Part shown: positions 8,655 to 58,812 of the stretch, piece after piece
Layout: each line of letters opens with the position of its first letter
How positions within the stretch are numbered: position 1 is the first letter of the stretch
From: Marsupella aquatica
Lineage: Eukaryota; Plantae; Marchantiophyta
DNA length: 64,000 bases
Assembly: GCA_973895155.1 (NCBI GenBank)
Contig: OZ316892.1
Span: forward strand, 3,723,223 to 3,787,222
Direction: 5' to 3'
Position numbers and translations under genes: made by a program
Notes under the pieces: model-generated
The model's database searches: none
Told to the model about the DNA's origin: nothing
What the model saw: only the letters and a program-made list of their open reading frames with translations

Positions 8655-9164
8655 TCAAAGACGCACATTGTTCAAAGAATTTGCAACTGTGGCCGCGTTA
8701 GACGAAGAAACCTGTTCGGTGTAAGGCAAAAATTTGCCATTGAAGGTGATCGCCACCCGATCTTCACCCTCCTTGCCCTTGATTTTGTCAACAGTGGCAA
8801 AGAATCCAATTGCCGACATGATTCCATCTCCACACTCCTCGTTGATGATCTCTTTGAAGCTCTCGCCGTAGTGAATCACAGCCTCGTATATCCTATAAAT
8901 GGTGGGATCTTGCAGAATGGTCGGATCGAACGAGCGTCGGGGAATCTCCTGCATTTTCTCGAGCATTTCCGGGGTTAGCTGCGGCACTGCAGACCTCAGC
9001 TTCTCAACAGCATGCGGCTTCACCGGCATCTGCCGATGAAACAGTTGCGCAACATACGCGTTGGTGAGACCGGTCTCTTCGGCGATTTGCGAGAAGGTCT
9101 TGCCACTCTGCTTCTTGGCTTGCAGAAGCTGCAACACCAGATCCGCTTTCGCCTCCATCGCCAT
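8655..9164 (-). CDS. CYN: Cyanate hydratase (cyanase), CDS without introns
   Basis: N-terminal HTH-like region ([30 protein letters not shown]), catalytic region DPTIYRIYE and GDGIMSAI, C-terminal GKFLPY. Likely start is the ATG at 9164 (or 9158). A possible 5' UTR intron acceptor lies at ~9270. Confidence 0.95.
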
Positions 9165-10469
9165 TAAAAAAGAAATTGTTGGGGATCTCAACAATCGCTA
9201 GACAGTAGAGAATTCGTCTCTTCGTTACAATTTCTAGCTCCCACAAACGAATCGTATCTGGATTCTACCTGCAAAATGACAACAAATAGAGCCTCGTACT
9301 CAGTCATTCACGTACCAACCTCAAGATACGAACTTGACATAATTGAATGTCCCCCTCACCTCCTTCCATCACGCTCCCATGAAAGGCTAGTGCTATACTG
9401 TAATATCTTCAGATGACCATCCCACTGAAACCCTACTGCGCATACAGCTCGATGAAGCCCGCTAGTAGGCAATCTGAAGGGTCATGAAACCAAGATCCAG
9501 CTCATGACGATTTCTCTGCCTTCAACCCACACACTACTACCAACCAACCATTGATAGCCACACCACGACCACAATCGAAACCAAAGCGAATTATCTTCGC
9601 CATCAGCATCGACCAAACAGCATCGACCAAACGACACAAACCTCTTCTGTACAGTCCTCTGCGACACACCACTCCAAATGGCCCGCCAATTCTTTTCAGT
9701 GACAAGTGGATTATTCGTCCGTCTCACCTCAACCTGTGCCAAATGTGCAGATTCTCGCAGCTGCGTTTGATTCAAAGACTTGCTTCTTCTTTCGTGCCAA
9801 AACGAACCAAAGGCTGAAAGGCATTGACGTTATATTCCGTCGATCATGATTATCCAGAGTGCAAACCGTGGACAGCCGGTCGATGCACTGCGAGCTCGGG
9901 AGCTGGGCCTTGCATGCCCACCAGTCCAGCTACGTAAGGAGCAGATTGAATACTCATAGCTCGATTCTAGATCTCTATCGATAGGTCTAGTACTCTGGAC
10001 GTCGGCCCGAGCTTTGGCGTCGCGAATCGCCATGCTTTGCCAGACGGTCTCCCACGTCGATGGAGCTGCTGGTCAGAAGGTTGCCATGTGTTCGAGTCGG
10101 TAACAAACAGCGCAAAGCTTCAGACGAGCTTCAAGTAATGCAAATCGGGGCCGAACACGTACTGTCAACTTACGGTGTAATAATGGCCCTTTGGCACCTG
10201 GAAGAGCCTTACCTGTAAATTGGCCCTTTGAAACCTGAAAGAGCCAAAGCTGTTAAATTACAGAAACCAATGGATGTCATGGCATAGCTTGTACCCATGC
10301 CATCACATGGTCTTGAATCAATGGAGCACACATGGCCACCACCTGGTCTCGTGCCCATCAGAGAGGTTGGACCAGAGGCTTACCAATTCTTAGGTCTTAG
10401 TAGGGCTGAGGTAGTTGGTTTTAGGGACTCCCGTCAGGTGGTTTTAGGGACTCTCGTGAGGTTCTGTTT

Positions 10470-21670: not shown

Positions 21671-23021
21671 GCTGCCAACTATTGCTCAAAGCAAAACGGG
21701 ACACATGCCAAAAAAAAGGCTTGGCTCAACCGGAAAAGAGTGTGGGATTCTCTCCCATGCAATTTCTTTTCTATCCGTTCCAAGTCCTTTGCTTTGAAGA
21801 AGCTCGTAGCCAGATTGACGGCCTCTCACCCAACGAGCTATTGTGAGAACTTCGTTATTTACGGGGACCGCAAAATTCGGATCAATTCGGGGGTGATGGT
21901 GGGGGTCCTCTCCAAGTTCACCAGCGATATCGTCACATGAAACGGAATGCTTCAGTGCCCATAATTTGGTGTTGGTATCTTCGACATAATCTTAGGATAT
22001 CCACTTGTAGGGCTTGTCATAAGATACTTTTTGGGCTCACCGTTGACCCTCCTTGGGTCACCTGTGAAGCACATTTCTGGAACTTCGTCCGACGACAGAG
22101 GCTCAGAACTCTCTTCTAGTCTCCATGAGTCAACCACGCTCCACAAAGTGATTGAAGCGATCTGGGCACCAGTCTCCGTATCCTTGAGGCAGAAATTCAT
22201 GATGTGGCTTACCTTCTGCTCGGAACTGGCAATTGACTATGCAACGCGTGTCCTCTCGTTCTGGTCCTTGACTGTTTGTGCACTCTTTCCACAGCCCTTG
22301 TCCAGTCAGATCGAAGACATAAATCTTTTCCTCTTCCTGGTCAAACATTTGTCTGATGTTCTCGTTGCCTTGCTTTTCTGTGATCCGTGTACTTTTGTGT
22401 TTGTGAGAACAAACATATAAGTTACCACTGGATGCAATCAGCTGACAAAACCTTTCGTTATCACCAGGAAGATGTGGGATTGGAGGAAGTTCATAGAATT
22501 GTTTCTCTCTCATTGAATAGAGAGAAATTGCGTTCCTGTACGTGCAGTCATGGTGTAGCACATCATTACATTTAACTTCATTGCTGTGCTTGAGAGCTAG
22601 AAACTCTTCCCGTGAATGGGACCGAATCCTCTCATTGTAGACCTCTCGGCTTTGAATTGCCTCTTGCCAATTCGGGCTCACTGACTGCAGTTCATGAAAA
22701 TCTGTCCAGCGCAACTTTGTGGCAATGTGGGTCAAAGTAACGTCGTCTGGGATCCCTGGAAGAAGCTCTTCGAGGAAAGAAGACATTTCTTGAGACTTCA
22801 ATCCGCTGAAGAATGTCTCGCGCGATCTGGATGGGCAAATAACCTATGGAAATAATGACCACATTAAATCAGATTAGAAAAAGTCAGATAATCTCATTCG
22901 ACGTATATATATTAAATGCCATCTGCCTTTCAAGCAGGTACATATAGATCGAGTGCTGCCATGCCAATCCACAACGACATAGAATTGAGGTTTTTGGCTA
23001 GAGTAAAGGAATTGAAATAAA

Positions 23022-25500: not shown

Positions 25501-27660
25501 CGTAGGGAGGAGATCTTCAACAACTTGCTATGCGTACTACCTACTTACGCCTACAATTTGTCCACAAGGCCGTGGTTTATTTTTGTCATGGCAAGATTTG
25601 GCTTCCATGGCAATGCATGGTAAATTAATCCACATGCCCCCCTCACCAATTCATGAGGACAGAGCAACAAATACTGGGTGCCTTGAGTTTAGTATGCACA
25701 AAAGACACAGTTCCTTGCTTACTGGAGATTGAGAATTGTAGTCTTCAAATAGATCATTTGCCAAGAGATCAGGGGCTAAATGACTTCATTGTTATCCATC
25801 ACAAAATACATAGATGGTAGTGTAATGGAATTGAAGCATGTTGGTATTTGAGTAATGATTGTGGACGTTATGCAATCGAACCGTGCTGTCTAGCTAGTAC
25901 ACACCTTTTGAGAATTTGTTTTGTTGAATATTGCTAAGGGGGAAAATTTTTGAACGTTCATTTATTGATTATCCTGGAATAATAGCAAATTAAGTATAGG
26001 CCATTTTCTTGGCTACGGGACCATTTTCCCTTGTGTATATGATTGATTTGCATCTCATATCGTTCTGCAACGGGTACATCAATTATGACTATTTGTGCAG
26101 CCATCAAATATGAGTGGTTTGATGATGGTGAGATTGATTACATTGAGATTGGGTTAGTCTTGCATATGACTCTCATTGTGGTCATATACGTGATCAGTAT
26201 GAGTCACCATGAAGGGGATCACGGGAGGGGAGTTAATTAGCTTATTCAAGTATCCCTGTAGTGCTGGTATCGTGGCTGTGTTTTGGGAGAGGGGATCAAG
26301 TTTGAAATGGCGCTTCATGAGAGTCCACAACTCGGCCCCACACTTTGTGCCCGACTTTGTGGCACCCTGATGTGCCACTCTTGGGGAAGTGGGACCCGAG
26401 AGGTTAGTCGAACAGAAAGCAGAAGTCATAGAGTCCCTGCTAAATTCCAACAAAGTATATCAAAGTTAATGAACTATTAGAGAGACGTACTACATGGTGG
26501 TACTAACGTGTGTGCAAGCATCCTAATTAACACCTCTATTAATCAATTCTTGATTGGATCCTGTTTATACAATGTGTTCTTGCGCAGTTCTGTGCTCACG
26601 CAAGTTAATTAGTGGAAAGTGTCATAGTGCTGGCCAGCTCTAGTTTCAGACCACGAGTTTTGGCCCCACTTTTGTATTGCTGTCTTCACCTATCTATTCA
26701 ATTTGATTAATTATCTCGAGCATGAATTGGATGGCATCCAGTTTGGAAATAGCTTCTCATCAACCACTATAACATGCGCACCAAACCAAGGACAGGGTTT
26801 CCTTTTAATTTGAGCATGTTGGTGCTCTCTAGCTAGAATGTGGTCATATTCAAGAGTTTGGACGGGATGTGTCAACTTCAAAAATTAACCTCCTTCGGAT
26901 GTGTACTGTAATTAACCACCCCGGCCTGTACCCTACAAAATAATCAACCCCTGTGCAACTTAAGTAGGGTGCGATTTGTCTTATGGGGTTTCATTGCTCA
27001 CCGATAATTCCTCACCACAAAGCCCATCTCTAAGCCTTGTTAGAACCAGTCAAATAGTTCCCCACTTGGAGATTCCACTAACTACCTGAATGGGACTTTA
27101 GACAGTACACAGATTTTGCACTCTCCAACTATACATTAACCTACCATGCATACTTGGGGCATTTTTGTTTTCCCATCACAAGAAATCCACATTGGAAAAC
27201 TGTTTTGCCTACTTCAAGTAAGGATTACTGAACCTCCACATAATCCCAGGGAAAAATGACCGCTTACAAAGGAAAGTTCACAAATCCACATTCAAGCCAG
27301 TGAGAAAAATTGCCTTGTGATATATGATGGTATTGATCTCCTTGCATTCAATCATCCGTTTCCTTTACTGCATCATTTGTTGAAACGTCTTGTGTTCATC
27401 CGTATAGTACAAAAGAAAAAGGGCCCATCAATTTAGAGTTCAGGGGTCGTCCATACAGAAGACTATAGTATGGCTGCACTTACCTAGATCAGACAATAAG
27501 GAATATTTATTCAGAAACTTACATTCAGCCTTGTCAGTCTTAATGATACATCTGGTGTGACTAAATCCAGCTCCTGACTAAATCCAGCTCCTGAGTCTAA
27601 AAAATCTAATACTATCAGAAGGAACTCTTCACTTAGAAGAACACTAATTTAACAACGTAA

Positions 27661-28080
27661 CTAACGCTCTCCTCTAATATGCCTGACCAACTGCATGTCC
27701 TTGGGCATGATGGTCACCCTCTTTGCGTGGATTGCACACAAATTGCTGTCTTCAAAGATACCAACGATATATGCCTCTGCTGCCTCATGGAGGGCAAGAA
27801 CAGCGTGGCTCCGGAAGCGAAGGTCCGTCTTGAACTCCTGAGCTATCTCACGAACAAGTCGCTGGAAGGGAAGCTTGCGGATGAGACGATCGGTACCCTT
27901 CTGGTATTTACGGATCTCTCAGAGTGTCACTGTTCCAGGCCTGTATCTACAAGGCCTCTTCACTCCTGGCCTCGCTGTAGTTGAGTTGGAGGCATTCATG
28001 CGCAGGGCCTTGGTGGCAAGCTGTTTGCGAGGCCCCTTGCCCCCTGTGGACTTACGAGCAGTCTGCTTGGTACGAGCCAT
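27661..28080 (-). pseudogene. H3: Histone H3 variant (K27M), copy 1, with an in-frame TGA
   Basis: 140 codons collinear with the 29693-30112 copy: [60 protein letters not shown]... The TGA at 27919-27921 replaces an Arg codon (CGC in the other copy). Not listed in the ORF track. Confidence 0.93.
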
Positions 28081-29554
28081 AGGTACTTGCTCCTAGCTCT
28101 CTTCCAGATGGAGAGCAAGAATGGATATATATATACACGCGGGAATCGAGTATCTGCAAGGTTACACACTACAACAAGCTTGGAGGCCAGTGACTAAGTA
28201 ATGAGAAGGGATCCACGTACTAGCCTGAGGCGGGGCCTTCACAATAACAAGGCCAGGAGGCGCGTCAGAAGGATTCCTAGGTGCCGTTTGAGATGATGGG
28301 CAAGACTCAATAGCTGATTGTCTTGAATAGGTGCGAACCAAGGACTCCCCTGCAGGTGATCGAAACATTGTTCTGTTGTTTATGGTCAGTCCAGAATGAT
28401 TTGTGTCCTCCACTTGCACATGGATAGAGACGAAATGGATGGCTAGTTAGCAGACAAGTGGCGACATCAGAGGTTACCACAGCCAATTGCAACTGACTAT
28501 GGATGGGAACCTTTCTTTCGTGTGTTTCGTGACATTGTTTGAGAAGGTACTAGCCAGGGACCAGCGTGGCCTAAACTTGCCATATATTCTCTTCAAAAAT
28601 TAAACTCAGTTTTTCTAAAAACAATTGTAAAATCCTGGCTGGTTTGGCTATAGAATCCAATATTAAAAGAAACCATATAAATTGGATTTGATCAAGTTAT
28701 TACACATAAAAAAATGTTCACTTTTTTAAAGTTACCTCTTTGGATTACTCAAGTTGAGAGCCCAGGTGAGAGGCAAATCAAACAGTTTAGTATCAATATG
28801 ATCCATTGAATAGAATGCCATGATCACTGTGTACTGAAAGTCAGGTTTCAAGAATTAATACAAGTATTTAAGTCTCAGGGGTCTCACTATATGGAGGTCT
28901 CCTCATCACTTGCAACTATTTCAGGCCTTGGATGTAAGAAAACATTATTTTACAATCACTACAATATTAATTTTGATTAAAACACACAAATGTGTTTAGA
29001 AGTCTCAAAATTAGATTAAGAATATTCTATTGTTCTTCTGAGTAAATTATTAGATATATATTACTTTAGAACCAATAAAATGACTTGATTTGTCCCACTT
29101 GATATGTTATTTTTGAGACTTAAAACACAATGTAAACCCTTACTACAAAGGAGCCTGCATTGAAGTGAATATTTACAAATGCCCACGTCAACATAACCAC
29201 GACTCACTCCCCTTAATGTTGTTCCCTGGCTAGTACCTTATCAAACAATGTCACGAAAACGAAACACACGAAAGAGAGCTTCCCATCCATAGTCAGTTGC
29301 AACTAGCTGTGGTAACCTCCGATGTCGTCACTTGTCTACTAACTAGCCATCCATTTCGTCTCTATCCATGTGCAAGTGGAGGACATAAATCATTCTGGAC
29401 TGACCATAAACAACACAACAATGTTTCGATCACCTGGGGAGTCCTTGGTTCGCACCTATTTAAGACAATCAGCTGTTGAGTCTTGCCCATCATCTCAAAC
29501 GGCACCTAGGAATCCTTCTGACGCGCCTCCTGGCCTTGTTATTGTGAAGGCCCC

Positions 29555-29650
29555 GCCAGTACGTGGATCCCTTCTCAGTCTCTTAGTCTCCAAGCTTGTT
29601 GTAGTGTGTGACCTTGCACATACTCGATTCCCGGGTGTATATATATCCAT
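29555..29650 (+). promoter_or_regulatory. Putative histone promoter: octamer-like CGTGGATC and TATA
   Basis: acgtggatcc at 29561 (one mismatch to the plant histone octamer CGCGGATC) and tatatatat at ~29638, 50 bp before the ATG. Both are mirrored in the other arm. Confidence 0.45.
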
Positions 29651-29692
29651 TCTTGCTCTCCCCATCTGGAAGAGAGCTAGGAACAAGTACGT

Positions 29693-30112
29693 ATGGCTCG
29701 TACCAAGCAGATTGCTCGTAAGTCCACAGGGGGCAAGGGGCCTCGCAAACAGCTTGCCACCAAGGCCCTGCGCATGAATGCCTCCAACTCAACTCCAGCC
29801 AGGCGAGGAGTGAAGAGGCCTCGTAGATACAGGCCTGGAACAGTGGCACTCCGCGAGATCCGTAAATACCAGAAGGGTACCGATCTTCTCATCCCCAAGC
29901 TTCCCTTCCAGCGACTGGTTCGTGAGATAGCTCAGGAGTTAAAGACGGACATTCGCTTCCAGAGCCACGCTGTTCTTGCCCTCCATGAGGCAGCAGAGGC
30001 ATATGCCGTTGGTATCTTTGAGGACACCAATTTGTGTGCAATCCACGCAAAGAGGGTGACCATCATGCCCAAGGACATGCAGTTGGCCAGGCGCATTAGA
30101 GGAGAGCGTTAG
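29693..30112 (+). CDS. H3: Divergent intronless histone H3 variant derived from H3.3, encoding K27M
   Basis: Open 139-aa ORF with a complete histone fold. Y41 and QSHAVLAL (H87, L90) are plant H3.3 signatures. Changes: T6I, A15G, A25L, K27M, S28N, 4-aa insertion before G34, K37R, H39R, S57G, R63P, Q93H, L100A, loss of the terminal Ala. K4, K9, K14, K18, K23 and K36 are retained. Confidence 0.93.
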
Positions 30113-30122
30113 AGGAGAGCGC

Positions 30123-30280
30123 AAAAGGTTTATGTCCTCGATCTGACTGGACAAGGGCTGTGGAAAGAGTGCACAAACAGTCAAGGATAGGAACGGGAGG
30201 ACACGCGTTGCATAGTTAATTGCCAGTTTCGAGCAGTGGGTAAGCCACATCATGAATTTCTGCATCAAGGATACGGAGAC
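30123..30280 (+). pseudogene. Internal fragment of the F-box/kelch-like gene fused directly behind the H3 stop codon
   Basis: aaaaggtttatgtcctcgatctgactggacaagggctgtggaaagagtgcac... is the reverse complement of ~22170-22330 and ~41630-41790. Bases 30279-30376 then match the reverse complement of ~40955-41055. Confidence 0.85.
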
Positions 30281-31387
30281 TTTCCAGTGGTTTCTATATC
30301 AGACAGCTATATAGTTGTTTTGTCATTGTTCAGATTAGATTTCCCCAAATCCTTCCTTGAATTGGCCCAGGATTAAGTTAGCTCGATCACCAAACTGTTA
30401 GATCGGCAAACTGTGCCTATTGCATAGGTGATTGGGAATGAATAGAGCTATAGTTTTTGAAATTATGATGACATATTTTTTTCACATCTATTGGTCCGCA
30501 GATTTTGCAATATCATGATTCCATTTTGATGTTGGATTTTCAATGTTCACCAAAGCATATATATATATGCACGGTGAATGATTTTGGAATTACACTTGTT
30601 TGTGTTAAATGCACCATCTCAGGTTTGTGTCGAGGTTGTGTTAGTTCTCCAATCTAACCAATTTGTTTTGCTATTTTTCAATTCAACAAATACTTCCTAA
30701 TAAAACTCTCATCTCAATGCTTGTACGTGTTATACCTTTCCCATATCAGACTGAAGTCAAAGTTAAGAAAACAGCAAACGGATCATTTTATCAAGAGTAC
30801 TAAAATTAAGACTGCCCCTTGATTGAAAGTACGAAAAAAGCAAACGGATCATTTTATCAAGAGTACTAAAATTAGGACTGTCCCTTGATTGCGAGCACAC
30901 TTACACACAGACACTAAGGATCGAAATCCTGGTTAAGTGCATGTTTCAAAAACTCTGGGGCTTGGTGAAGACACTTTAACTGTTTTCAAATACAAACAAT
31001 TAACTCAACCAATCATTTGAAATGAATTTTTCAATGATATGACAGGGTAGTATACATCAGATTAATAAAGACTTGCTCAAGCTGGCCTTATTGCTTTGCT
31101 AACCTACAGGACATGCATGCTAGCAAATACTTAAAACTTGGGGTTTCATTTTTAAAAAATGGCACATCAAGCAAGACAAAGGAAGGACATGCTTTTAAAT
31201 CCAAGGGGTTTCAATTCTGTGGTCTATTAACACATGTGAAATTGTTATTTATTTGGCAAATTATTGTGCAAACGAAAATAGTTATACCAGGCCTACACCC
31301 AAAGGCGTAAAAGGTCCACTAAGCCAATCTACCAGATGGCTACAAGCTAGCTGCCTGTCACATGATGTGGAGTACTTGTGGGTACCC

Positions 31388-37032: not shown

Positions 37033-38443
37033 TCAAACTTGAATATTCCTTCTCTTGGAGCGATTTCTTCCAACTCTGTGGTTATTAAACCAATCCACTA
37101 ACTGTATTCTGCTCAATCCAGTTTCCTCAATCAAAAGTTTTAGTTGGACTTTATTTGGCTGTGGACGCCCTGGATTCTGAGCTTGCCAATCTGTAAGAGC
37201 GTTCGTGATGTGCGGTTGAAAGTGAGATTTCAGTTTTCCTTTGAGCTCAGGATTCTCCTTCAGATTTCTCTTCCTTTCATTTTCAAAAAGGCTCGAGACC
37301 TGGCGCTTATCCATTCCGTTGTCTAGTGCTATGTCTTCACATTCTTTGTCGGAGGGGTAAAAGCTGCCAGGGTTCTGAAGCCGCCAGTTTTTAGGAATGT
37401 CCTTGATGTGCTGAGGATGCACAGCAACTCTTCTGTCGTTCTGGCCTCTCATGTATGTGTAAACCCATTTGCAAACCTCCTTTATGAATGTTTCCATTGT
37501 GACTGGAACATTATCAGCCTGTAATGTTTGAAGAGTTGAATCAAGACTGCCCAGTAATGTTGGAAGAATTGGAGATCTTGCCTTCTTCATAGTTTCACAG
37601 AAGGCCTTCCCAACCATTTTATTAAGTAATAGAGTGGCCTCCATAATCATGTCTTCAGTGACAAGAGCGTACGTATGCTTGACCTTCCGTCATGGCTTCA
37701 AAGCTAGATACAGCTGCATCAGATGTCACCGGAGGTTCTCTATGATCAGGTCCAGCCATCGGTGAGCTGGAGAGAGTTTGTCCCGTCTCCGATTCGTGGT
37801 ATTCTGGTGCTGGACCTTCCGTCATGTATTCAAAGCTAGATACAGCTGCAGCGGATGTCACCGGAGGTTCTCCATGATCAGGTCCAGCCATCGGTGAGCT
37901 GGAGAGAGTTTGCCCCGTCTCCGATTCGTGGTATTCTGGTGCTGGACCTTCCGTCATGTATTCAAAGCTAGATACAGCTGCAGCGGATGTCACCGGAGGT
38001 TCTCCATGATCAGGTCCAGCCATCGGTGAGCTGGAGAGAGTTTGCCCCATCTCCGCTTGGTGGTATTCTGGTGCTGAACCTTCCGTCATGGCGTCAAAAC
38101 TAGATACAGCTGCAGCGGGTGTCACCGGAGGTTCTCCATGATCAGGTCCAGCCACCGGTGAGCTGGAGAGAGTTTGCCCTATCTCTGATTCGTGGTATTC
38201 TGGTGCTGGATTGTTGGGACGTGGTTGCCCGCAACCATCTCTTAGCTCTGATTCGGAATGATCCGTTGGAAAACTTGGAGCTTGAGGGCCTACATCCACC
38301 ATGTTTGATTGGTCCAACTGGTTTGTATCCCGATCTGGCCCTTCAGATTGGAAACGCTGCACATTGGGAACCTCAATGCTCCCATGAGTTTGTACTAGTT
38401 CGTGGAGCTCTGGCCGCACGTCAAATCCCAAACCTTGGCTCAT
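37033..38443 (-). pseudogene. Gene encoding an acidic repeat region and two tandem TALE-like homeodomains, split by one frameshift
   Basis: ORF 38443-37655 (four 44-aa repeats) and ORF 37650-37033 join into one frame if the TACG duplication at ~37668-37675 is removed (GCA TAC GCT CTT GTC ACT GAA GAC ATG). HD1: KNWRLQNPGSFYPSDKE...GMDKRQVSSLFENERKR. HD2: LTDWQAQNPGRPQPNKVQ...TGLSRIQLVDWFNNHR. Confidence 0.75.
37682..38209 (-). repeat. Coding tandem repeat, 132-bp (44-aa) unit x4
   Basis: ccttccgtcatg at 37683, 37815, 37947 and 38079. Unit APEYHESETGQTLSSSPMAGPDHGEPPVTSAAAVSSFEYMTEGP. Confidence 0.95.
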
Positions 38444-39074
38444 TTTCTAGAACGCGCCTACCTTTCAGCTGCAAATATGTCACAAACTCAAGCAGAGGTT
38501 CTGCAGTCTATATATCCCTTGAGAGTTTCTCCTCCTTTAGTGGTTTTAGATGCTCTGAAGTTCAGCTACAATCTCTCTTAATTTCTCCTCCTTTCGTGGT
38601 TTTAGATGCTCGTAAGTTCAGCTGCAATCTCTCTTCCTTTTGATCCCAGCCGATCTCACCTCCCTAGAAGATTTTAGGAACTGGAGGTTCCTTCTCTTGT
38701 TCCTTCCCTGGTTATTTCCTCGTGTCTGCAAGTTAAGTACCTACGTATTCTCAACGGCCCACTTAGCTCTGGTTGCACTAGCTCCAGGCCTCCGATGTCC
38801 CGGCCAGTATCCTCGTCCCTACTTTAGATCCACACGTCCCCACGTTTGGTCAGATCCGGCAGTCCTTGCTACTCTATAATTGCAAAAATCCGTCCAAATT
38901 AAGTGAAAGCTCTCCATATGAAACTTACGTTGGAGCAAATTGAACTCACAAGAAGGCTTCCGCCAACTTTCAGGATAACAAGCCTTCAAAAATTTCAGAA
39001 CCTTGTACAGTGCCCTTGATAGATCTTTTTGGATGCTTAAATACTTTGAAATTCAACATTCCACATCTGCTGGT

Positions 39075-39262: not shown

Positions 39263-41122
39263 CTAGTCTGGCCTACCGTTACAATGAATGACATGTCTCT
39301 GGCAGTAAATTCCTTACCATGAACTTAGCCATGAGGTAGTTAACGCAGCTGTTCCGCATCAACTACCAGAGGACCGCCACCGCTGGGTCTGTGACGTTAG
39401 CTCATCGGTTCATCGTGTGTACATCGGACAGAAATTTGACTTTTCTTAAAAGCAAGCCCTGTTCTCCACATCATTTCGATTCGCTTATTTCAGTGTCGTG
39501 TGGCACACAGTGGCTACCGAGTCGTTGTCACCTTCACCTGATCCCTGAGTTTAAGTCCTATTCTGGCTGCCCCCGCACTAGCAACAAGGCTGAAAATGAC
39601 TTGGTGTTCAGAGCCCTCTTCTGTCCTTCGGTTCACTCCTTTCATTCGCAACTCACATATGACCTCCCACACCATTCAACAAGCAAGAGGCCAGAAGTGA
39701 AGGAAAAAAGCTGCACACTTAACACAATATTTGCCACGTTCATCGCTGTAACTTGCTCCTACATTCTAGCTCCTGTTCGATAATTCTCGAAAGTGGTACA
39801 ATCTCGACTGACCAACACCGCAAAACATAAGAAAAATCTTGCTTAAAACAAAGCAGAAGACGAAGCTTAATATGTTCACGATTTGATAGAGCTGGTTCTT
39901 CTGATCTTCTGCAAACGAAGTCCTCTTCTCCGTTACAACAAGTAGGCCACCCAATGCCAATACCAGTAGATATCAAACAAACCTGGAAAGTAAACAGATG
40001 AGCCCGTATACAATTTAATGAACTAAGACAGAGACCACTTCCACTGGAGTTAACTCAATTGAAGAGACGTTCTACACTTATTTTGAATGCTGCAAGCTGT
40101 AGCTTTCGCCAATGCTTAGAGCATCAAAATCCTAACTGTAGTAGATAATGAACTTCAAGGAATAAGCTACTGATACATTTTGGGCGGGACCCTCGAAACC
40201 AATAAAATACTTCGTTGGGGCGCTAAGGGAAACAACGAAGAGTATCTACAGAGACACACTAATAAAGGTAGAGCGTCTTTACAGATGATTTCCCCCCACC
40301 TACCACCCTGTCACTTCCTGAAGCTAGTGAAGATAGGTTCAGTCATCATCACTCCAAATAGTAATTCTCCCATCATTGGCAAGAAAGGTTTTCCTGTGAA
40401 ATAAAATCAGACTGTACGGTAATTAAAGAGCAATTTGCACCAATGGGGCTCAGTATTCTTAGTCGACAAATTCTTTAACATGGGTTGACTGCCATGAGAT
40501 CATTGTCACATCCCAACCAAAAAAAAAATAGTCTGACGCGCTAGCTTGTGGCTGCTGACGATGGCTCCTTGAACCGAACGAATCAGTGATATCTATTATT
40601 AAGCACTAGTCAAAAGAGAATATAAACAATACCTCTGCGTTTCAATCTGTGCTCTTCAACATCTGCATTTCTTCACAGATTGGCTTCACGACAATCAAAA
40701 CTCACAAGGATTCATTATAATGTTACAATGGAACTTAAGTAAGAAGCCCAACTTCAACGCCTCACACATTTTCAGCTTGTCATTCGTTGTCATCACTATC
40801 CAGCCTGAAAATGTCGAGTTATCCCTTCCCCATATTTCTGGGGGCCCGCCTAAATCTGCAATGAACAGGGGGCCGTGCTCTTGGCCAGAACCCTCTCCCT
40901 TTCGCACTCTGTTTTCAATATCTTTGGCTGCTGCAGCCATGGCTCTCTCCCGGTTAATCCTGGGCCAATTCAAGGAAGGATTTGGGGAAATCCAATCTGA
41001 CCAATGACAAAACAGCTATACAACTGTCTGATATATAAACCACGTACTGGAAAGTTTTCTGTGCAGCAGCATCTTGTTCCCCTACATCACTATGCTTGGC
41101 TCTTTGGCCAAATTAAGGACCA

Positions 41123-41910
41123 GCTGCCAGCTATTGCTCAAAGCAAAACGGGACACATGCCAAAAAAAGGCTTGGCTCAACCGGAAAAGAGTGGGATTCT
41201 CTCCCATGCAATTTCTTTTCTATACGTTCCAAGACCTTTGCTTTGAAGAAGCTCGTAGCCAGATTGCCGGCCTCTCACCCAACGAGCTATTGTGAGAACC
41301 TCGTTACTTAAGGGGACCGCAAAATTCGGATCAATTAATTCGGGGGTTATGGTGGGGGTCCTCTCCAAGTTCACCAGCGATATCGTCACATGAAACGGAA
41401 TGCTTCAGTACCCATAAATTCGTGTTGGTATCTTCTACATAAATCTTAGGATATCCACTTGTAGGGCTTGTCATCAAATACTTTTTGGGCTCTCCGTTGA
41501 CCCTCCTTGGGTCACCTGTGAAGCACATTTCTGGAACTTCGTCCGAAGATAGAGGCTCAGAACTCTCTTCTAGTCTCCATGAATTAATCCACCACGCTCC
41601 ACAAAGTGTTGAAGCGATCTGGGCACCAGTCTCCGTATCCTTGATGCAGAAATTCATGAAGTTTACCTTCTGCTCGGAACTGGCAATTAATTAATTAACT
41701 ATGCAACGCGTGTCCTCCCGTTCCGATCCTTGACTGTTTGTGCACTCTTTCCACAGCCCTTGTCCAGTCAGATGAGGACATAAACCTTTTCCTCGTCCTG
41801 GTCAACTATTTGTCTTCTGTCGTTGCCTTGCTGGTCTGTGCTCTGTGGACTTTTGTGTTTGTGAAAACAAACATATAAGTTACCACTGGATGCAATCAGC
41901 TGACAAAACC
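41123..41910 (-). pseudogene. F-box/kelch-like gene copy B, 3' part; its 5' part is at 56897-56954, beyond the CACTA element
   Basis: Collinear with 21671-22452. The N-terminus MSSFFEELLPGILDDVT reappears immediately right of the CACTA end. About 280 bp present in copy A are missing at the junction. Confidence 0.85.
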
Positions 41911-42290: not shown

Positions 42291-43139
42291 CATGGCGCCT
42301 CAGTGGTTCTCTTTAGAGAAGGCTTGAGTTTCGGAAAGTTGAGATGCGAGTTGCTTCGGAATGTAGCGATGGTGTTGGGATGGGATCTAGCGATGAGGTA
42401 GGAATCGTTAATGTAGCCATTAGGTTGAGATGGGTAGGGGTTCGCAAAATGGTTCGGAAATTTGGTTTTGGGGTTTGTCAGATTTAGAAAGGGCATGGGA
42501 CAAGGAATGGAGGAAGGAGGGTCAAGGAGAGAGGAGGGAGGAGGGAGGAGGCACACTTTAGGAAGAAAAGGAGGAGGAAGGGTTGACTTAAGGGGGGACA
42601 AGGAACAAAGGGAGGAGGAGGAGGGCGGTTTAGGGTGCACAAGGAAATGAGGGAGGAGGGAGCGTACCTACCTACAGTTTAGGGAGGGAAAAGGAAAGGA
42701 GGGAGGGAGGGTGGAAGGTATAGGTTTAGGAGAGGGACAAGCCAAGGAGGGAGGAGCATAGGTTGAGGACAGTGAAAGGTGGAAAAATTGAGGGCATCTA
42801 TAGGTTTTAAAAAGGAAGGGGTTGAGACAAGGGGAGGAGGGAGGTGGGTACAAGTACTAGAGAGAAAGGCTAGGGGGTGGGAGAAGGAAAGCTACGAGGA
42901 GGAATGACTACAAGCGACATGAGTTTTCTTTTCATAAAGTGTACCAAAAGGTGTGGGAGTGTACATAGGACTGTGGGGATGGAAGATGTAAAAAAGCCAC
43001 ATTTAAAATTGATATACTTACAAGATTGATTTGGGCAAACATAAATTTATTAATAATTTAGAAACACATATTTCTCCAACCAAGAAGAGAGATCCTCATA
43101 TGTTCAAATCTAACTATATATCCACATAACATATACCCC

Positions 43140-46100
43140 TCAAACTTGGTCCTCATCCTCTTCAGGTTGGGACACAACCAGAATATCTGCTTTTCCCCAA
43201 CAACTGAACGAGATCGTGGCACATATGTGATGACAAGTGACCATTCCTCTGGGTTTGGGGGGTATGGAATATAGAAATATTGTTCCACATGACTTGGAAA
43301 AGTGAACGGCTCTGATGTTTGCCAATGAGATGGCTGGAAACTAGTGGCAGATGTCTTTAGCCGTGTAAATCCACACTCATCTTGAAGCACGGTGGGATTG
43401 TTACCTGCAAGGTTCACTTTGAACCACTTGCACTTGAAGACATACTCTTCAAACTTTGATTGTGCATCATAAGAGATCACTAGGATCTCCTCTATCTTTC
43501 CATAATGTGGCACAACATCTCGAATAATATTTGTGTCATGGCGACTGCTGCGGGAATCTTGAGAGAATTGTCCTTGAACTCCACAATCAAAGGTACGACC
43601 CCTCTTCTCATCAAGGGAATAAACCCTAAAATCCACCAAACCATAAGGACATGTTACAAAAATAGGCATAAACATATAACAATTCATATCACATGCCAAA
43701 AAATTGTCTCTTCAATATATGTGGGTGTATTACACATAAATTAAAATCACCATAGATGAAAGGTTACTAAGGTACTTGGAAATAACCTGAAATGTCTCCC
43801 TTGTGTCCACATTGCCGTCCTTGTTGTAACCATTCTCAAGGGACAATGAACAATGGTACGGACATCATCTGTGATAGCTGGAAAATGTAATACATTCTCT
43901 CCCCTCGCTACCATGTCATCCACCTCAACCAACTTCTCCTTCATGTAGTCATGGTACTTTGGAAAGATCCTTGGTCTTCTACTGGTACTTTTGGCATCCT
44001 CATAGAAATCCCTCCATTCTTCCATGATAGTGCTGTTACTCAACATGAATGTGGTTAGTTGTTTCAACTCCACTGGTGTCAACATGCGGGTTTTGATAGC
44101 ACCTGTTAAACGATCCTCCTCATCTTCCCTCTCCTCTACCCAAGTACGGGGAGAGGTACGATCAATTGTGGCTAATATGTTACTGCAATAGAACATACTC
44201 TCTGCTGCCAAGTATCCTGTAGCCATGCTTCCCTCAACCCGTGCCCGGTTACGTACATAACCCTTTAATACTGCCATGTACCGTTCCAACCAATACATCC
44301 ACCGACAATGCACAGGACCAGCAATGGCCACCTCATGAACAAGATGAACAAGTAAATGCACTTGGTAATCAAAAAAGGAAGGAGGAAGGGCCTTTTCTAA
44401 CTTGCATACCACCTCTGCTGCCAGTACCTCCATTCCCGGGATCTCTTCACAGTATATCTCCTTAGAACATACCCATCTCAATAGTTTTCCCAATGACCAA
44501 ATGGCATCTTGCACTTCTGAACTTGCCAAACCTATTATGGCCACGGGCAATATATGCTGCAATAACCGATGATAGTCATGCGTCTTGAGATACATTGGCC
44601 ACTTATGATTGTCCTCCATCCCAAAGGCCTTCCAGAGATTGGCACCATAACCAGTAGGAAACCGCATGCCTCCTATGTGATTCCTAAACTCCCTTCTCTG
44701 GCCAACAGGAAGCACCCATGGGGCTGAAGGTCGATGTTCTATCCCTGTGATAGGATCAATTGTGACCCATACATCTGGATGCATCTCAAGATCCTCACAA
44801 GCCTCCCTGAAGTTAGTGTCCTTTTCTCCATAGAAAGCCTTTATCAAAGCCTTTCCCACATTTCCCTCAATGTGCATGGGGTCTAATAGATGGCGGATCT
44901 TCAACTCTCCCCAATAAGGCAAAGTGGTTAATATACTCCATCTAGTCAACCCGCTACCCTCAAATTGCATGGGATCCTCCGGGTTTGCCACTCTATCAAC
45001 CAAGTCTTTCCAATGTGCAAAAGTTGTTGGCTCTGGTATATCACGTTCATCACCAAAGGGCATATCAATGGAGGAAAATAGTAGTGGGTCAAACCTCATC
45101 TGATGGCCCATTGGCAGAAACTTTGTATGCCCAAGATAAACAATCTTGTGAAGGTGTGATGAGTACTTGGCTATATCACCAAGACTTGGGCCACAAGTGG
45201 AGCAAGCCTTGTAGCCTTGGGTTTGCAACCCACTCACAAAGCCAAATCCTGGTCATATAGACACACATAATGTAGAACTAGCACATGGAAATGACGGGAT
45301 AACATGCATTATCATATCATGCTGGATGTAAACAAAAAAAGAGTGTTGTAGTTTCATAGTTCTTACCTGGGTAGTCATGCATGGTCCACATACAAACCCC
45401 TTTTAGTTTAAAAACCCGTGGGGTACCCCCTATAGTCTTTCGACCGTCATATGCCCATATTCCGTCCCATAATTTTTGGAGTTCCTCAACCACTAATGCC
45501 AAATAGGTGTCCATGTTCTTCACCTTCTTTGGCCCTGGGATAATCAAAGATAGCAATAAAAAACCCTTTTTCATGGACAACCATGGTGGAAGGTTGTAAT
45601 TCATGAGAACCACTGGCCAAACTGATGTAGGTCTCCCCTTCCCTCCAAGTGAATGAGGGCTAACCCCATCTGATGCCAACCCAAGTCGCACATGCCGAGG
45701 CTCACGCTCAAAATCTGGCCATGTTGACTCCACATGTTTATGAGCAGGAGAGTCAACTGGTAATCGCATCACACCGGGCTCCGAACGATGCTTCTTGTGC
45801 CATACCATCAACTCGGCCAAGTCAGAACATCTATACATGTGCAACAAACGAGGAATAATGGGAAACCAACGAACTACTTTTCTTGGCACCTTCCCGGTTA
45901 GCATGTTTGGGTCATACCGTGGCTCATGACATACTGTGCATTCTGTCATATGGGCTTTGTCCCCATGAAATAATATGCAATCATTCACACAGGCATGAAT
46001 GATATGGTAATCCATGCCAATGGATGAGAGAATCTTCTTTGCATCCTTCCAAGTTCCAGGCAACACATTCTCCAAGGGTAACATCAAGTCATGACAATAT

Positions 46101-46549
46101 TCAAATATGTCTGATAACATAGAATTGTTTGCCTTATGTTTGGCCTGAATGTTCAACAACCCCAATATGGCTGACAAACGACTCAACCGAGCACCCTCAA
46201 AGATAGGTGTCCGGGCATGTTCCTCAGCCTCCTTCCATTGTTGTTGTCCCTCTGGAGTATGTTGTGGTCGTGGGTCATTTTGGGGGGCAGCTCCTTCAAC
46301 ACTAATGTCAGGGATACCATCTTCAACATCAGCACCAAACCAATCAACCATGAAGTCATCCATGGCTCTGTCCTGGTCATGCATGACCTGGTCATCAGTC
46401 TGAGGTGTTGCTTCCTCATCACCATGATCACTTACATCATTACTTGATGAGGAATCATCCTCTGATGGTTCTCCCTCTTCTGGCATGCCCATCTCCCGAT
46501 ATGCTGCTCTCAACCTTCGTGGTAACATTTGTTGAGATGGTTGCACATT
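43140..46549 (-). CDS. CACTA transposase (TnpD-like; Transposase_21 / DUF4218 / DUF4216-type regions), main exons
   Basis: Motifs IHACVNDCILF, C-x2-C..PRY, RLGLASDGVSP, WPVVLMNYNLPPWL, WTMHDYPG, HLLDPMHIEGNV, LKTHDYH, FFDYQVHLLVHL, GPVHCRWMYWLERYM, FKCKWF, DECGFT, EPFTFPSHVEQYFYIP. Introns 45366-45249 and 43786-43626 (GT-AG) join the three ORFs. Probable frameshift near 43195. Confidence 0.93.
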
Positions 46550-46800
46550 CTACGCACGACACAACCAAAAAACCTCTTGATGTATATTTCACCAGGTACA
46601 ACAAAAACAGACTTCAGACCATTCATTCAAGACAAATTAACTATCAGTTTTAAGGATTGATTGCATGCATTCACATTAAGAACTTAAGTGAAGGGCCACA
46701 CCAAAATTATACTACTCCAAAATGAGGCCAGAGGACATGTATATAACATTGATAAGTGTGAAGTACACACAAGGTACAAGAGGATGTATGACGTGGCTCC

Positions 46801-47496
46801 CTAATCCCACTCATAGTGTGTGAATAACTCATCTCCAGCTCTAATAGTCCTAGTGGCAAGAACTAAGCAATGGTCCTTATGATATGTCGTTCCATATGGT
46901 GCCGGCATTGGGCCATCAGTAAAAACCCACTCACAATTGGCCCTACGCTTGGGTCGAGTCCCCACAGTACTATTTATAAAGCCAGCAATATTCCCATTAC
47001 ATACGGGATCACCGTCTATCACCCGCTGCTCACTATACCTTCTAGTGCTACCATGAAAAATATCCATCTCCAAGGCATATGTTTTCCACTCAGGATGTTG
47101 TGCAAGGATCATGTTCCAGTGTCTTCTCTTGTAGATGGGTCCACCGTATGGGAACAAAGTAGGACCCTCTCTACCATGAGCACTTGACCCACTCCCATCA
47201 TCCATGATGATATCCTCACAAGCAAATACTCCATATCCGTGTCTCTCTCCAAGTGTGGAAGCTTTCACAATACAATGTCTACCCCAAACCACAATCTCCT
47301 CATCATAACCGGGAAAATAAGGCAAGCCAAGAGTTATAGGATCCCAATCTTTGATGATAGAGGCACACTTGCCAGTGAATGAACAAATGCCCCACCTACC
47401 CTCAACTAGTGTTCTTGATGGGTCACTGGGTGCTCATGGCCTCCTCTTGGACTGGGGCCTGGACCGGGGTCTTTGTGTCTCTGTGGTGCGTCCCAT
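46801..47496 (-). CDS. Stand-alone SET-domain protein inside the CACTA element, with one in-frame TGA near the N-terminus
   Basis: ATG at 47496 (GCCATGG), 232 codons, TGA at 47434-47436. SET motifs: IVKASTLGERHGYGVFA (GxG), PYGG (YxG), IAGFINST...ANC (RFINHS-like), LATRTIRAGDELFTHY (ELxxxY). Ends 3 residues after the terminal Tyr, with no post-SET cysteines. Confidence 0.85.
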
Positions 47497-48395
47497 GGCT
47501 CCCTAAACCCAAGAAACCCCCCAACTCAAGCCGATTCCCATAGGTTTCGCGCTTGGCGAGGCCGTTTCCGCGGCTTAGCGGCATGGGACGCTACTAACCT
47601 TCTACTACTACTATTAACATTGTACACATATATACTGGACAGATCCTTCATCGGGTCATGAGATACGTAGCCGGCCTAATCTAGGCCTTCCCTCGTCTTC
47701 CCCTCCATCTTGTTAGGTATGTTTGGATTCCGCCGCCGGAATGATCCCCAATAGGCTTGGTTAAGCCGCTAAGACCTCTCTCAGCTCGACACATCCAACT
47801 CTCACTCCCCTGCTTACTTTCCTTCCTTTTGGTTGATGTGGGCACTCTTCACACAAGTTAATGCGACACACAAATAACAAAATGACTCATTCTGACTGAG
47901 TCATACCATGCACTTGCCATACAAACAGTACATCTCATACACAAGCTCTGCGAACTAAGCCGTGAGACCAACTCTATTCAGCTCTTAGGCATGAGGAAAC
48001 ATGAATATACACAAGGGTCACTGTATGACTAACCGAGAGCTTCTCGTACTACTTGATCCCAGCCCGACTGGTGCAAACTAAAAACTTGCTAAAGAAGAGG
48101 CCCTGAGCTCCCCGCTGCCCAGGTACTTATCCTGGTAGTGGATCCGCCTAATTCTTTGCAGCGTAAGCCTAATCTACCTAACAGTAATCTACTTGCCCGG
48201 ATCTACCTATGTATAGCAAGGCAGGAGCACAAGTGTTGCTCCTACCAGTGGAACCGCAATCCCACTAAGCTAAGTGTTAGGGCCGCTCCTGGTCCTGATC
48301 CTAATCCTAAACTTGGAGATCAGCGCCCGCCCTGCCCACTCACGCCTCCTCCCTCCACGTCCGCCCTTCCTAAAAGGAACGGCGCCCTTGCACTG

Positions 48396-51300
48396 TCACG
48401 ACATCGGTGGTGGATCCTTAATGGACGCCCCCAACGCTTCCTCCTCAGCCACTGCCGTAGGTTCGTTCTCTGACACATTACCTGCCCTTGACTGAGTCAA
48501 CTCTCCATCGGCCTGACTGGGTCCACCATCGGCGTCGGCATCGGCTCGGGAATCGGTTACGGCCTCCGTCTCGGCTACGGTCTCCCCGGCCTGCTCAAGA
48601 GGCGGATCTGGGATACCGGCCTCATTACTGAGTAGTTCGGCTTGGGCTGCACCATCCCCACCCTTGATGATAGCGAAATCTATTGCCGTATTCATGCCGG
48701 AGGTTGGTGCTGGGTCTACCTCCTTGGTCACCACGGCCTGTGGAGTCGAATTACTCCTTGACCCTGAAGGTTTCCGCTTCTTCTTCTTTTTTGGTTCGGC
48801 AGCTGGTCCCTTCCCCTTCCCACTTACCTCCGGCACTGGTGCAGGTGGCGCGGCTTTTTCTTCGGCCAGTACCACTCCTGGTAACTTGGTTGCCCCAATT
48901 GGAGTTGGGCCTGATGAAGACAAGCACTTAAATATTGCGGCTTGTTTCTTCAGCCGCTCTGTTTGGTTGTCGGCCCGCCGCTGGAGGTTCTCCATCTTCC
49001 TCGTGATTTCCTCCAACTCCTCCTGGGTCTCATCCAGGTCCTTGCACGCCTCCTCTAGTTCCTTCTGGGCTTCCTCCCGTTCTTTTTTCAAGGTAGTCCT
49101 CTCCTCCTGGGTTGCTCTTAGCTCCTTGTCGAGCTCTGCAATGATGACAGACTCCATCTGGTTCATCTTGGCGTAAGTCTGATCGAGCATCTCGTCCTTC
49201 TCCCTTAGGTCGGCCTTGAAGCTGGCCGTCAGGGACGCAAGCTCCTGCTGCAGCGCCATAATCCCTTGATAGGATTTCCCTAACTCGGCCTCCTTCTACT
49301 CAAGGGCTCCGCGGATTTTCTCGAGCTCCCCCTTCAACGCCCATTCCTTTCTTTGGGTCTCCGCCATGGCCCGGCTGTTGGCTATTATGTGGGCCTCCTC
49401 TGCATTCCTCAGCTCTCGCTTCCACTTCTCCCTCTCTTTGATCGTATCGGCCAACTCTCCCTGCGTCTGAGTCAGTTTATCCTTGATATTCTGATTATCA
49501 GCCTGCGCGATGTCCAACTGCCCCTGCATGATGTTCAGCTCATGCCGTTTAATCCGCAGTTCATCTTGGGCTTTCTTGGCCGCCCTTAGATCTTCAATCT
49601 CGGCTTCCATCCTCCTAAGCCGCCGAATGACCTCGTCCTTCTTGCTTCTCTCTAAAGCCACCGCTTCTTCTAATTGGTGCTTCTCCAACTGCTCCCTATG
49701 GAAAAAGGGTCCTACCTCCAACTCCTCTCCAAAGATGCCAAGCGCAAGTTCCCCACACATCTCACCATACTCCATGGCTCTATTCTTAGCGTAGGTGGAG
49801 TAAGTAGGAGTGATCGGCATCGCCCATCGCGGCCTCTGCTCCCAAGCCGTCTTGCGGATCTCTTCAATCGTGGCTAGAGGTTTGCTTCCTTTTTCGGCTA
49901 GCCGCCTGATGTCCTCCGACCAATCTCCTCCTGGTAAATCCTTTTCCCTAGCCAGGGCTGCCTCCTCTTCCTGCCTGATTCGCTCCTGAAATTCCTGCGC
50001 CATCTGTTTTATGCCGTCAAAGCTCGGGGGAGCAACATCTGGTGGGGGAGACTCAGGGCTACTCTGCTGGTTGGGGTCCCCTCGTACTACCCTTGGAAGT
50101 GTGGGGACAAACCGGCCACAGGTCCTTACTCCTGGAACGTGATGGTCCGACCCATAGCCGGAGTTATCATGGCTGCAGTCCTCCACTGCCTCCTCTACTT
50201 CTTGGACGTCCGGCTTTTCCCTCTCCTCTTCGTCGATAGGAGCTTCGGGCAATTCTGCCCCAGATTCAGAGCTTGAGACTCCCACGTACATTTGAACACC
50301 TGGCTTGGATTCCGGCCTGATTCTCTCCTTGTCTCCAGCAAAGGGGTTTTCTCTTGTGAGCCGATGTAGGCCTACCTCTGGAGTAGTGTCCTGCATTGTT
50401 GCCGTTGCCGTTGTCGTTGCCGATGCCGATCTCTTTTCTTTCTCCAGTAGTTTCAGCAGACTCTGCATGCCTGGTTGCTGCATTGGCAAGTCCTCCGTCC
50501 TTGGCCTAAACACTTGCTCGATCGTAGGGCTAACAGGTGGTTGAGGCTTCTCTGCTAACGGCCTCGGCGTTGGAGCTTCCTCGGGTGCCCTTACTTGCAG
50601 GGGAAGTATTGGGGCAAAGGTCTGACCTCTGGCATACCGGCACAATAGCGGCATGTGATAGCCAAGCCGCGACACGCTCCCCATGCCGATTACCTGCTGC
50701 TCCTCCTTTAAGATCTTCTTCAATTGGTTGAGGAGGTACCCGTTGTAGTCCCGGCTTGGGTCTGGCCTCTCTGCCAGATAGACCTGTGCTTTGCCGATCT
50801 CTGCCCTCGGCAAGTTACAATGCATGGTCACCCGCAAGAAGTCGATCATCTCTCCTATATGCGGGTTGGTGCAGGTGTTCCGGAAGAAGCCATTCTTCGT
50901 TGATGGCCCGGGGAACGACCGGAACTCCTTGTCAGGCAAGGTCTTCCTGGTATCAACTTTGGTCTTATTGCCTATCGGCAAGCCAAACACTTCGGCAATC
51001 ACTTTGGGAGTAAGATAGAAATCCTTCCCATATATCCTCGTGCAATTGGTCTCGGGTTCCCATGACCCCACGTATTCTAATAGGTCTGACTCCGGTACCT
51101 CCGGCTTCAGCCATGGTAATCTTACAAAGGCCTCTAAGCCGGATCCGGCCATGAAGCCTTGGTACTTCTTGGTCTGCATGGCCGTAAAGCATGCATCCTC
51201 CTCCCGTGCAAAATGTAGTTGCACCTCCATCGGTAGGGTTGCCGCCCAGCCCTTCCAGGTGTCATCCCTGGTTGGAATGGCCTTGATGGGATCGACCTCC

Positions 51301-52031
51301 TCCTCTTCGGCTTCTCCCTGCCTCCTGCTCTGCTGCTCGGCTGGCTTCTTTGGTGCCGCCGACCTCGTTCTTTTTGCCGGGGTGGCTTCATCGTTGACAG
51401 CTCCCTTCCTCTTCATCTCTGCTGCCGTGGAGGTTTCTCCTAGCACCGTTGCCTGGGTCCACCTTTCCGTGCTACCCTTTAATTCCCAGTGTATGTCGTT
51501 GCAGTTCTTGATGGCCTCTCGGATGCCGACGACGCTGTCTTTGCAAAACAGAAGATCGTCGAGCTGATTGGAAGTAGGAGTCCACAAGAACTCGTCCTTG
51601 ATGAGTTCGCCTCCTAAGAAAGCCGTCTTCTGCAGCTCCCACAATCGAGCGAGCTCCTGCCGTTCTCGAGCTGCCCTTTCTGATTCCTCGTCCTCGTAAG
51701 TCTTGATGTACTCAGTTGCCCGTTCGAACAGGCATCCCCAGAAATGTGCCGCTTGATTGACGTTGCTCATACCCTCCTTAGGTCGATCGTTGGTATCTAC
51801 TCTCTCCCCGAGTGCTTGCCTAAGCAGCTAACAGTAGTTGGCCTCCCGTAGTCGTCTGCCTAGTTCATGCTCGCAAATGAGCCATCGTCTCCTGCAAGCG
51901 CTCCTTACCCCTCTCCTCTTCAGGTCCTTCCTCCCGTTGATCCTTCCTAGCCGCCGACGCTTAACGCGCCCTAACCCTAATCGAGTTTTCACCCCCAGCG
52001 TCCTTACCTCCAACCTCGGCCCGGGTTCCAT
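48396..52031 (-). CDS. Large (~1210 codon) gene with a plant-mobile-domain (PMD)-like segment and long coiled coils; two in-frame TAG stops
   Basis: ORFs 52031-51828, 51770-49296 and 49259-48396 share one frame, separated only by TAG at 51828 and 49296. LLEYVGSWEPETNCTRIYGKDFYLTPKVIAEVFGLPIG resembles the PMD core (W.PET.TF....E..IT..DV....GLPI.G). E/K/R/Q-rich heptads and KKKKKRK lie in the C-terminal third. Confidence 0.6.
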
Positions 52032-58720: not shown

Positions 58721-58812
58721 GGTTATGGGCCTTTATCTGATGTTGTAACCATTCCGTCACAGAATTCTTCTCTCCGCTCATTCTGTTCCGTTTTTCTGTT
58801 CAAGTTTTCTCT

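Follow-up and report, generated by a model that had tools for sequence, protein, structure and literature searches.

A liverwort H3.3-type histone gene with methionine after R26: a K27-methylation-proof variant that is probably fading

We asked whether a plant genome can encode, as a gene of its own, an H3 histone carrying the K27M change. K27M is familiar from tumours and from its use as a laboratory tool, and a known natural mimic of it, EZHIP, is confined to placental mammals. The question arose from a first-pass annotation of 64,000 nucleotides of the Marsupella aquatica contig OZ316892.1 (positions 3,723,223 to 3,787,222; hereafter the window), which described an open intronless H3 gene with a K27M tail resembling EZHIP and proposed a convergent PRC2 inhibitor, or at least a histone immune to K27 methylation. 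The open frame, here called copy A (Table 1), was borne out. Counted from A1 its tail reads K23-A24-L25-R26-M27-N28-A29-S30. K4, K9 and K36 are retained, as had been stated, K36 being residue 40 of a tail that equals the canonical one plus four residues. All three residues of the H3.3 signature, Y41, H87 and L90 (as given in the available part of PMC9797984), are present in the strings RRYRPG and SHAVL, and H3.3 is the top PDB match (E 2e-68). The further statement that change is concentrated at the Polycomb site did not hold, since differences from canonical H3 run across the protein. Copy A and its paralog, copy B, share A15G, K37R, H39R, S57G, E59D, D77E, Q93H, L109I and I124M and both lack A135; copy A alone adds F78L, L82I and L100A. 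Q93H, which belongs to the common stem of the two copies, is present in 1 of 239 fetched proteins.

Table 1. Features of the H3 variant family in the window and in its relatives
Feature	Position or entry	Strand	Description
Copy A	29693..30112	+	Intact, intronless H3.3-type variant ORF, 139 aa
M27 codon (ATG)	29774..29776	+	Directly after R26; lysine in Calypogeia relatives
N31 codon	29786..29788	+	K27 site if counted back from K36; lysine in 140-aa Calypogeia relatives
Duplicated upstream region of copy A	29220..29692	+	Contains TATA-like run and histone-octamer-like element
TATA-like run upstream of copy A	29638-29644	+	Read from the sequence
Histone-octamer-like element upstream of copy A	29562-29569	+	Resembles the histone octamer consensus
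Foreign 3' flank of copy A	30113..30281	+	92% match to 22338-22171, coding sequence of neighbouring gene
Copy B	27661..28080	-	Pseudogene paralog; same M27 and flanking residues as copy A
Upstream region of copy B	28081..28563	-	Matches copy A upstream region
Native-type 3' flank of the family	27500..27660	-	Retained by copy B; AATAAA about 150 nt past the stop
Silent shared variants	29878, 29881, 29912, 29914, 29947, 29983, 30007, 30031		8 of 10 among those listed
Replacing shared variants	29938, 29981		2 of 10 among those listed
Calypogeia fissa H3 variant entries	P0059, P0122, P0123		R26S, S28 lost, 4-residue tail insertion doubling the S-K pair

The closest relatives among the matches listed are three proteins of Calypogeia fissa (CAM6123591.1, CAM6084411.1 and CAM6123593.1, with 83, 87 and 81% identity), the histone folds of which are nearly identical to one another. 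They share with copy A the residues L25, K37R, S57G, E59D, L109I and I124M and the strings TKAL, VKRP, KGTD, GIFED and KDMQL; TKAL is confined to the query and these three proteins (4 of the 239 fetched). In a protein tree of 22 rows the window copies join Calypogeia at 80/91 support. Over residues 48-138 the sequence common to copies A and B shows three differences from Calypogeia, one of which (T80) is the canonical state, and the tail differs at many positions. Two of the three Calypogeia proteins also have the four-residue tail insertion of copy A. Unlike copy A, however, all have a lysine at 27 (the long forms also at 31) and S26 instead of R26.

As a consequence of the four-residue insertion, the K27 register is ambiguous. 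Counted from the N terminus the site is methionine, and to that extent the original reading stands; the longer tail had been missed, and counted back from K36 the site is N31. The canonical residues A24-P30 match at 3 of 7 positions either way. Because the 140-residue Calypogeia forms have lysine at both 27 and 31, the window lineage appears to have lost both candidate lysines, one to methionine and one to asparagine, each one base change away. No lysine lies between K23 and K40 of copy A in either register, so PRC2 would be unable to mark this tail; the proposed immunity to K27 methylation follows from the residues themselves and was upheld.

Relatives that share the methionine were sought more widely. 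Among the 120 best of some 7,700-8,000 matches scored per protein search, many of them tandem or canonical H3 and few from liverworts, no M27 relative was present and only Calypogeia belonged to the family; divergent members could rank under these 120. A pattern scan of metagenomes gave no M27 family member; its one locus was an unrelated, K27-bearing H3 matched by chance. The literature searched, which excluded subscription journals and supplements (for instance liverwort genome histone tables), held neither a description of the Calypogeia H3 clade nor a report of a natural K27M histone in a plant. Conservation of M27, one of the checks that the first-pass annotation had suggested, is thus mixed: the motif is retained in every readable family copy and absent in Calypogeia, where the residue is lysine, few liverworts being among the matches.

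How much of the likeness to EZHIP is new? The motif AVRMRAS of the first-pass annotation was right: in the available part of PMC6513997 an EZHIP-H3.3 fusion tail that reads K-A-V-R-M-R-A-S lowers H3K27me2/3. Five of the seven residues from A24 to S30 of copy A are identical to it, in the pattern A-hydrophobic-R-M-x-A-S, and the likeness as such was confirmed. The case for convergence weakened, because canonical H3 itself has A24, R26 and A29, and the lysine-keeping Calypogeia H3s already supply L25 and S30, so that the match is mostly inherited H3. To judge by these comparisons, the likeness amounts mainly to one AAG-to-ATG change, only the methionine being new among the matching residues. That change could still matter. 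According to the same part of PMC6513997, inhibition of PRC2 depends critically on arginine at -1, does not depend on the +1 residue, and takes methionine or isoleucine at 0; in copy A, R26-M27 supplies arginine at -1 and methionine at 0, as in K27M and EZHIP-type inhibitors. The accessible text of PMC11997104 reports that H3.1K27M and H3.3K27M lower H3K27me3 in Arabidopsis. Given these two sets of findings, inhibition of PRC2 by copy A would be plausible if the protein is made.

We then asked about the state of the gene itself. The paralog had been presented with the same M27 and flanking residues, which the sequence bears out. A TGA at codon 53 (27919-27921) had been missed, and copy B has seven additional private replacements when polarised on Calypogeia. 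The two copies lie inverted and head to head, as a duplication some 900 nt long (29220-30112 versus 28563-27661), and tblastn found copies A and B only, with no third copy in the 64-kb window. An assembly artefact was considered and rejected, because the copies are 5% apart and both types occur in the contigs of sequencing run X1. The A-B identity stops at the stop codon. A flank similar to the native type of copy B appears as a loose end in the contigs of all four runs compared for it, and the foreign flank of copy A is joined at its stop codon over a short tandem duplication. We take the donor gene of this flank to be F-box/kelch-like from its motif; it had no Pfam match. No AATAAA-type word was found in the 588 nt after the copy A stop, a weak sign given that plant signals are loose.

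The differences between the copies fit neutral change. Eighteen codons differ; the 314 replacement sites carry 16.5 differences and the 100 silent sites 4.5 (dN/dS 1.17). Small as these counts are, they reject any omega up to 0.2 (p=5e-4) but not one of 0.5 (p=0.11), and neutrality gives p=1.0. The coding sequence has diverged as the upstream region has (21/417, 5.0%, versus about 20/465, 4.3%). Copy A has its own share of these changes. T6I, R63P (residue 67), F78L and L82I are private to it, together with L100A in this allele, which is apparently unfixed among sequencing runs; T6I and R63P had been flagged as private before, and contigs and Calypogeia polarisation agree. Among the 40 of 138 variant rows listed, the changes private to copy A are thus four polarised replacements plus L100A, with no silent change; four replacing of four has P=0.003 under an omega of 0.1, and five of five has P=0.25 under neutrality. 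Since at each of the four private sites most other contig copies have the ancestral letter, the fast change is not due to copy B alone. Copy A therefore fails a test of current purifying selection and fits neutral evolution though its reading frame is unbroken, and the dN/dS that had been proposed as a check speaks against present constraint. The caution about decay in the first-pass annotation proved an understatement, with the paralog dead, dN/dS at 1.17 and other copies broken.

These other copies came from sequencing runs. Nine runs, none of them recorded as RNA, contain the stretch, four with at least half its words, under two organism labels, and X1 may be the source of the window; contigs of X1-X5 were compared and the air-metagenome runs X6-X9, with small shares, were left out, and the rows listed from this comparison are 40 of 138 variants and 12 of 57 indels. 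The search for further ALRM-type H3 genes that had been recommended thus gave copies A and B alone in the window and at least four more family copies in the X1-X5 contigs, every one broken. Depth and overlap place two defects in a single copy, an inserted base (+1) at 29728 and a tandem duplication of 91 nt; another has a 4-nt insertion at 29777 and other indels; a third shows a local 8-gap shift after 29822; and a fourth skips 29609-29826, so that start and tail are gone. X3 and X4 also contain an unplaced 53-nt piece with nine differences. Among the listed variants of X1-X5 no alternative letter was found at 29774-29776, and the contigs that cover all of 29735-29835, in X3 (0 differences), X4 (4) and X5 (4), would have shown a codon other than ATG. 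In the most divergent copies, where the codon lies near contig ends, we infer M27 from mismatch counts. An A-type tail with no differences is present in the second labelled organism (X3 record 9). In X2 and X4 an A-type 5' contig appears, from overlaps and difference counts, to join a B-type tail with the stop, the joined tail showing as many differences as copy B has substitutions, seven with the stop counted. Either gene conversion or a simplification of the contigs may lie behind this, and we give it little weight.

The deeper history reads differently from the A/B pair. Variants at which copies A and B agree and at least two contigs of a run differ are silent in 8 of the 10 cases among the coding variants listed, a provisional count that may shift and that leaves aside both a broken copy (rows 29734 and 29744) and the rows of a second contig comparison. 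Against neutrality this pattern gives p=3e-4, with omega at roughly 0.08, and against the A/B pair Fisher p=0.002-0.006; the inner family branches, unlike copy A, pass the test of purifying selection. Contamination of the count by canonical H3 was judged unlikely, the X1 depths at 29878, 29881, 29938 and 30007 summing to the identified family contigs. No canonical-type change at S57, E59, L109 or I124 was found among the 40 of 138 variant rows listed. From these eight silent against two replacing variants, the gene would have been under purifying selection as the older copies branched off, probably already with M27. The claim that K27M is older than the A/B duplication is accordingly supported, as both copies share it and the shared variants suggest a gene under purifying selection.

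One could argue instead that M27 arose by drift in a gene already dead or silent and was then copied to later pseudogenes, so that an M27 histone never worked. Indeed, every copy but one is broken, no M27 relative came up among the best matches of the protein searches or in the metagenome scan, and the common stem also carries the rare Q93H. Nevertheless, the predominance of silent changes among the listed inner variants and the few differences from Calypogeia over residues 48-138, beside the many in the tail, are unlike the product of long neutrality, and we hold this reading to be quite unlikely.

We lean, with modest confidence, towards a small H3.3-derived liverwort family that likely served as a replacement histone proof against K27 methylation and would have dampened PRC2 as well; copy A is its only unbroken copy seen and now appears to be decaying. 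A tail without lysine between K23 and K40 would keep PRC2 from marking the protein, and the residues Y41, H87 and L90, all present, would direct its loading by HIRA outside S phase. With arginine at -1 and methionine at 0 in the E(z) active site, the protein may have left less H3K27me3 on other nucleosomes, as the accessible parts of PMC6513997 and PMC11997104 would predict. To judge by the contig variants, the M27 gene was constrained when its older copies branched away. In the pair, now about 5% diverged, coding sequence and flank have changed equally fast since the duplication, copy B has gained a stop and copy A has lost its 3' flank; for these reasons copy A is probably under relaxed constraint or dead. 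Most simply, a gene under constraint would have shed copies that then died, and the last lineage would have been released from constraint at about the time of the A/B split. Several observations do not sit easily with this. Copy A still has its open frame and start codon, its TATA-like run and its upstream region, all intact, and its tail type recurs without a difference under a second organism label. A germline variant may change quickly and still be functional, and EZHIP itself, according to the available part of bioRxiv 10.64898/2025.12.12.693809, often duplicates and pseudogenises. An intact master copy less than 80% alike could be missed. Moreover, the 8:2 count comes from 40 of 138 rows, M27 of the divergent copies from mismatch counts, and the tree support is 80/91.

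If copy A were alive, it might act as a K27M histone that dominantly lowers H3K27me3 for a brief period, such as in the male gamete, zygote or embryo. There it would counteract the silencing of paternal chromosomes by maternal PRC2 that is known from Marchantia, and conflict between the parents would drive a rapid birth and death of copies. The open frame with its promoter-like elements and the purifying selection on inner branches are consistent with such a role. The tail aligns with the EZHIP-H3.3 fusion, with K, A, R, M, A, S and a later P matching (PMC6513997, in part), and K27M inhibits Arabidopsis PRC2 (PMC11997104, in part). The portion of PMC9402228 at hand describes a Marchantia pronucleus that acquires H3K27me3 across the whole paternal genome, and for EZHIP the preprint (bioRxiv 10.64898/2025.12.12.693809, available part) proposes parental conflict as the cause of duplication and loss. 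However, the terminal branch looks neutral, with R63P, F78L and L82I lying in the fold, the native 3' flank is lost, and the A-type contig in X2 and X4 seems to enter the stop-bearing tail, which contig simplification could explain. In addition, Marchantia sperm contains protamines and not histones (PMC9402228, same portion), Marchantia yielded no male-germline H3 variant according to the accessible text of PMC6290024, and a motif scan upstream of copy A (29200-29692) found no DUO1 site, RRCSGTT. This role for copy A therefore appears unlikely to us.

A living copy A could also be proof against K27 methylation and nothing more, like H3.15 and H3.10, diluting H3K27me3 wherever it is loaded, with the methionine incidental. 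In the Calypogeia relatives the PRC2 site is already weakened by R26S and the loss of S28, with no methionine involved, and copy A has lost both candidate lysines. A change from K to M takes a single base and is one of the seven single-base missense changes of AAG, and viral H3s exchange K27 for M, R, S, T, L and others. The same signs of decay count against it, namely the neutral terminal branch and the lost 3' flank, as does the retention of R26 next to M27, the inhibitory pair of PMC6513997 (available part). We regard it as the least probable of the readings.

We nevertheless put forward, as a doubtful but consequential idea, that a liverwort lineage evolved a genome-encoded K27M histone as a PRC2 inhibitor of its own, a counterpart of EZHIP in a conflict over Polycomb silencing of the embryo's paternal genome, and that this inhibitor is still at work, in copy A or in an orthologue of sister species. 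A plant H3 with R26-M27 under purifying selection would, if true, mean that the oncohistone change can be retained by a cellular genome for a purpose, and would offer a natural test of switching PRC2 off in germ cells or embryos, in a group with a PRC2-silenced paternal genome (Marchantia). Even with copy A dead, the locus hints at a liverwort clade of H3 variants, so far undescribed, in which the K27 region changes fast and which could be screened for elsewhere.

The surroundings of the H3 copies are of some interest in their own right. One gene, which we presume to be F-box/kelch-like from its motif and which had no Pfam match, is present in several whole or partial copies (22130-22843(-), 30113-30376(+), 40954-41910 and 56660-57025), and gene-copy flanks are duplicated at 22.8-24.4 kb and 57.0-58.4 kb; on this evidence rearrangement of the region is frequent. 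A divergent TALE homeodomain ORF (37033-38446(-); Homeobox_KN, E 1e-11, with a second homeodomain-like stretch) lies 7 kb from the H3 copies, and 132-nt tandem repeats, in another frame, lie upstream of it; TALE genes of Marchantia are gamete-expressed. Within a CACTA-type element (43061-52687, with Transposase_21, DUF4218 and DUF4216), a SET ORF at 46804-47433(-) (PF00856, E 3e-6) stands beside the transposase and is possibly a transposon-borne histone methyltransferase-like gene. Mobile elements also occupy 725-4046(+) and 58477-63660(+), the latter with 99% identical 246-nt terminal repeats; from their motifs we take the first to be LINE-like and the second a copia-like LTR element. A cyanate lyase (cyanase) is encoded at 8655-9197(-) in one uninterrupted ORF (PF02560, E 1e-29).

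A natural arginine-methionine pair at 26-27 of H3 is not unique to copy A. Of 58 viral loci the pattern read 30 H3 tails and missed 28, and the pair is present in three of those read (L004, L019 and L028, position 3001 on), as it is in four clusters of unnamed metagenomic H3s (P0132, P0141, P0147, P0152), a fifth cluster retaining a later R-K. The entries P0210-P0214 belong with these full H3s. The giant-virus H3s with the pair are candidate viral K27M histones. These proteins resemble copy A in a natural methionine after arginine at the K27 site, but they fall outside the window group in a mostly unresolved tree and lack the diagnostic residues of the family; their origins are likely independent.

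EZHIP is a comparison of another kind. In the available part of bioRxiv 10.64898/2025.12.12.693809 it is a disordered non-histone, found in placental mammals only, with a conserved motif of 12 residues. Copy A is a full H3 and does not fit that family (non-histone, disordered, KLP), although both show repeated duplication and pseudogenes. The H3.3K27M oncohistone and the Arabidopsis K27M transgenes (PMC11997104, in part) come closer, with R26-M27 in a full H3 that bears the H3.3 signature; copy A differs from them in being genome-encoded and inherited, in its L25, N28 and S30 flanks and four-residue insertion, and in a K-to-M homology that depends on the register. Finally, Arabidopsis H3.15 (HTR15) and H3.10 (HTR10) lack K27 or resist its methylation (PMC7410336 and PMC9797984, available parts), and like copy A they are atypical H3s without a methylatable K27. 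Unlike copy A, they have demonstrated expression and function, and they are described as evading PRC2, not inhibiting it. We infer that the copy A family arose independently of them. Altogether, copy A belongs with the K27-evading type of H3, as a member that is probably fading.
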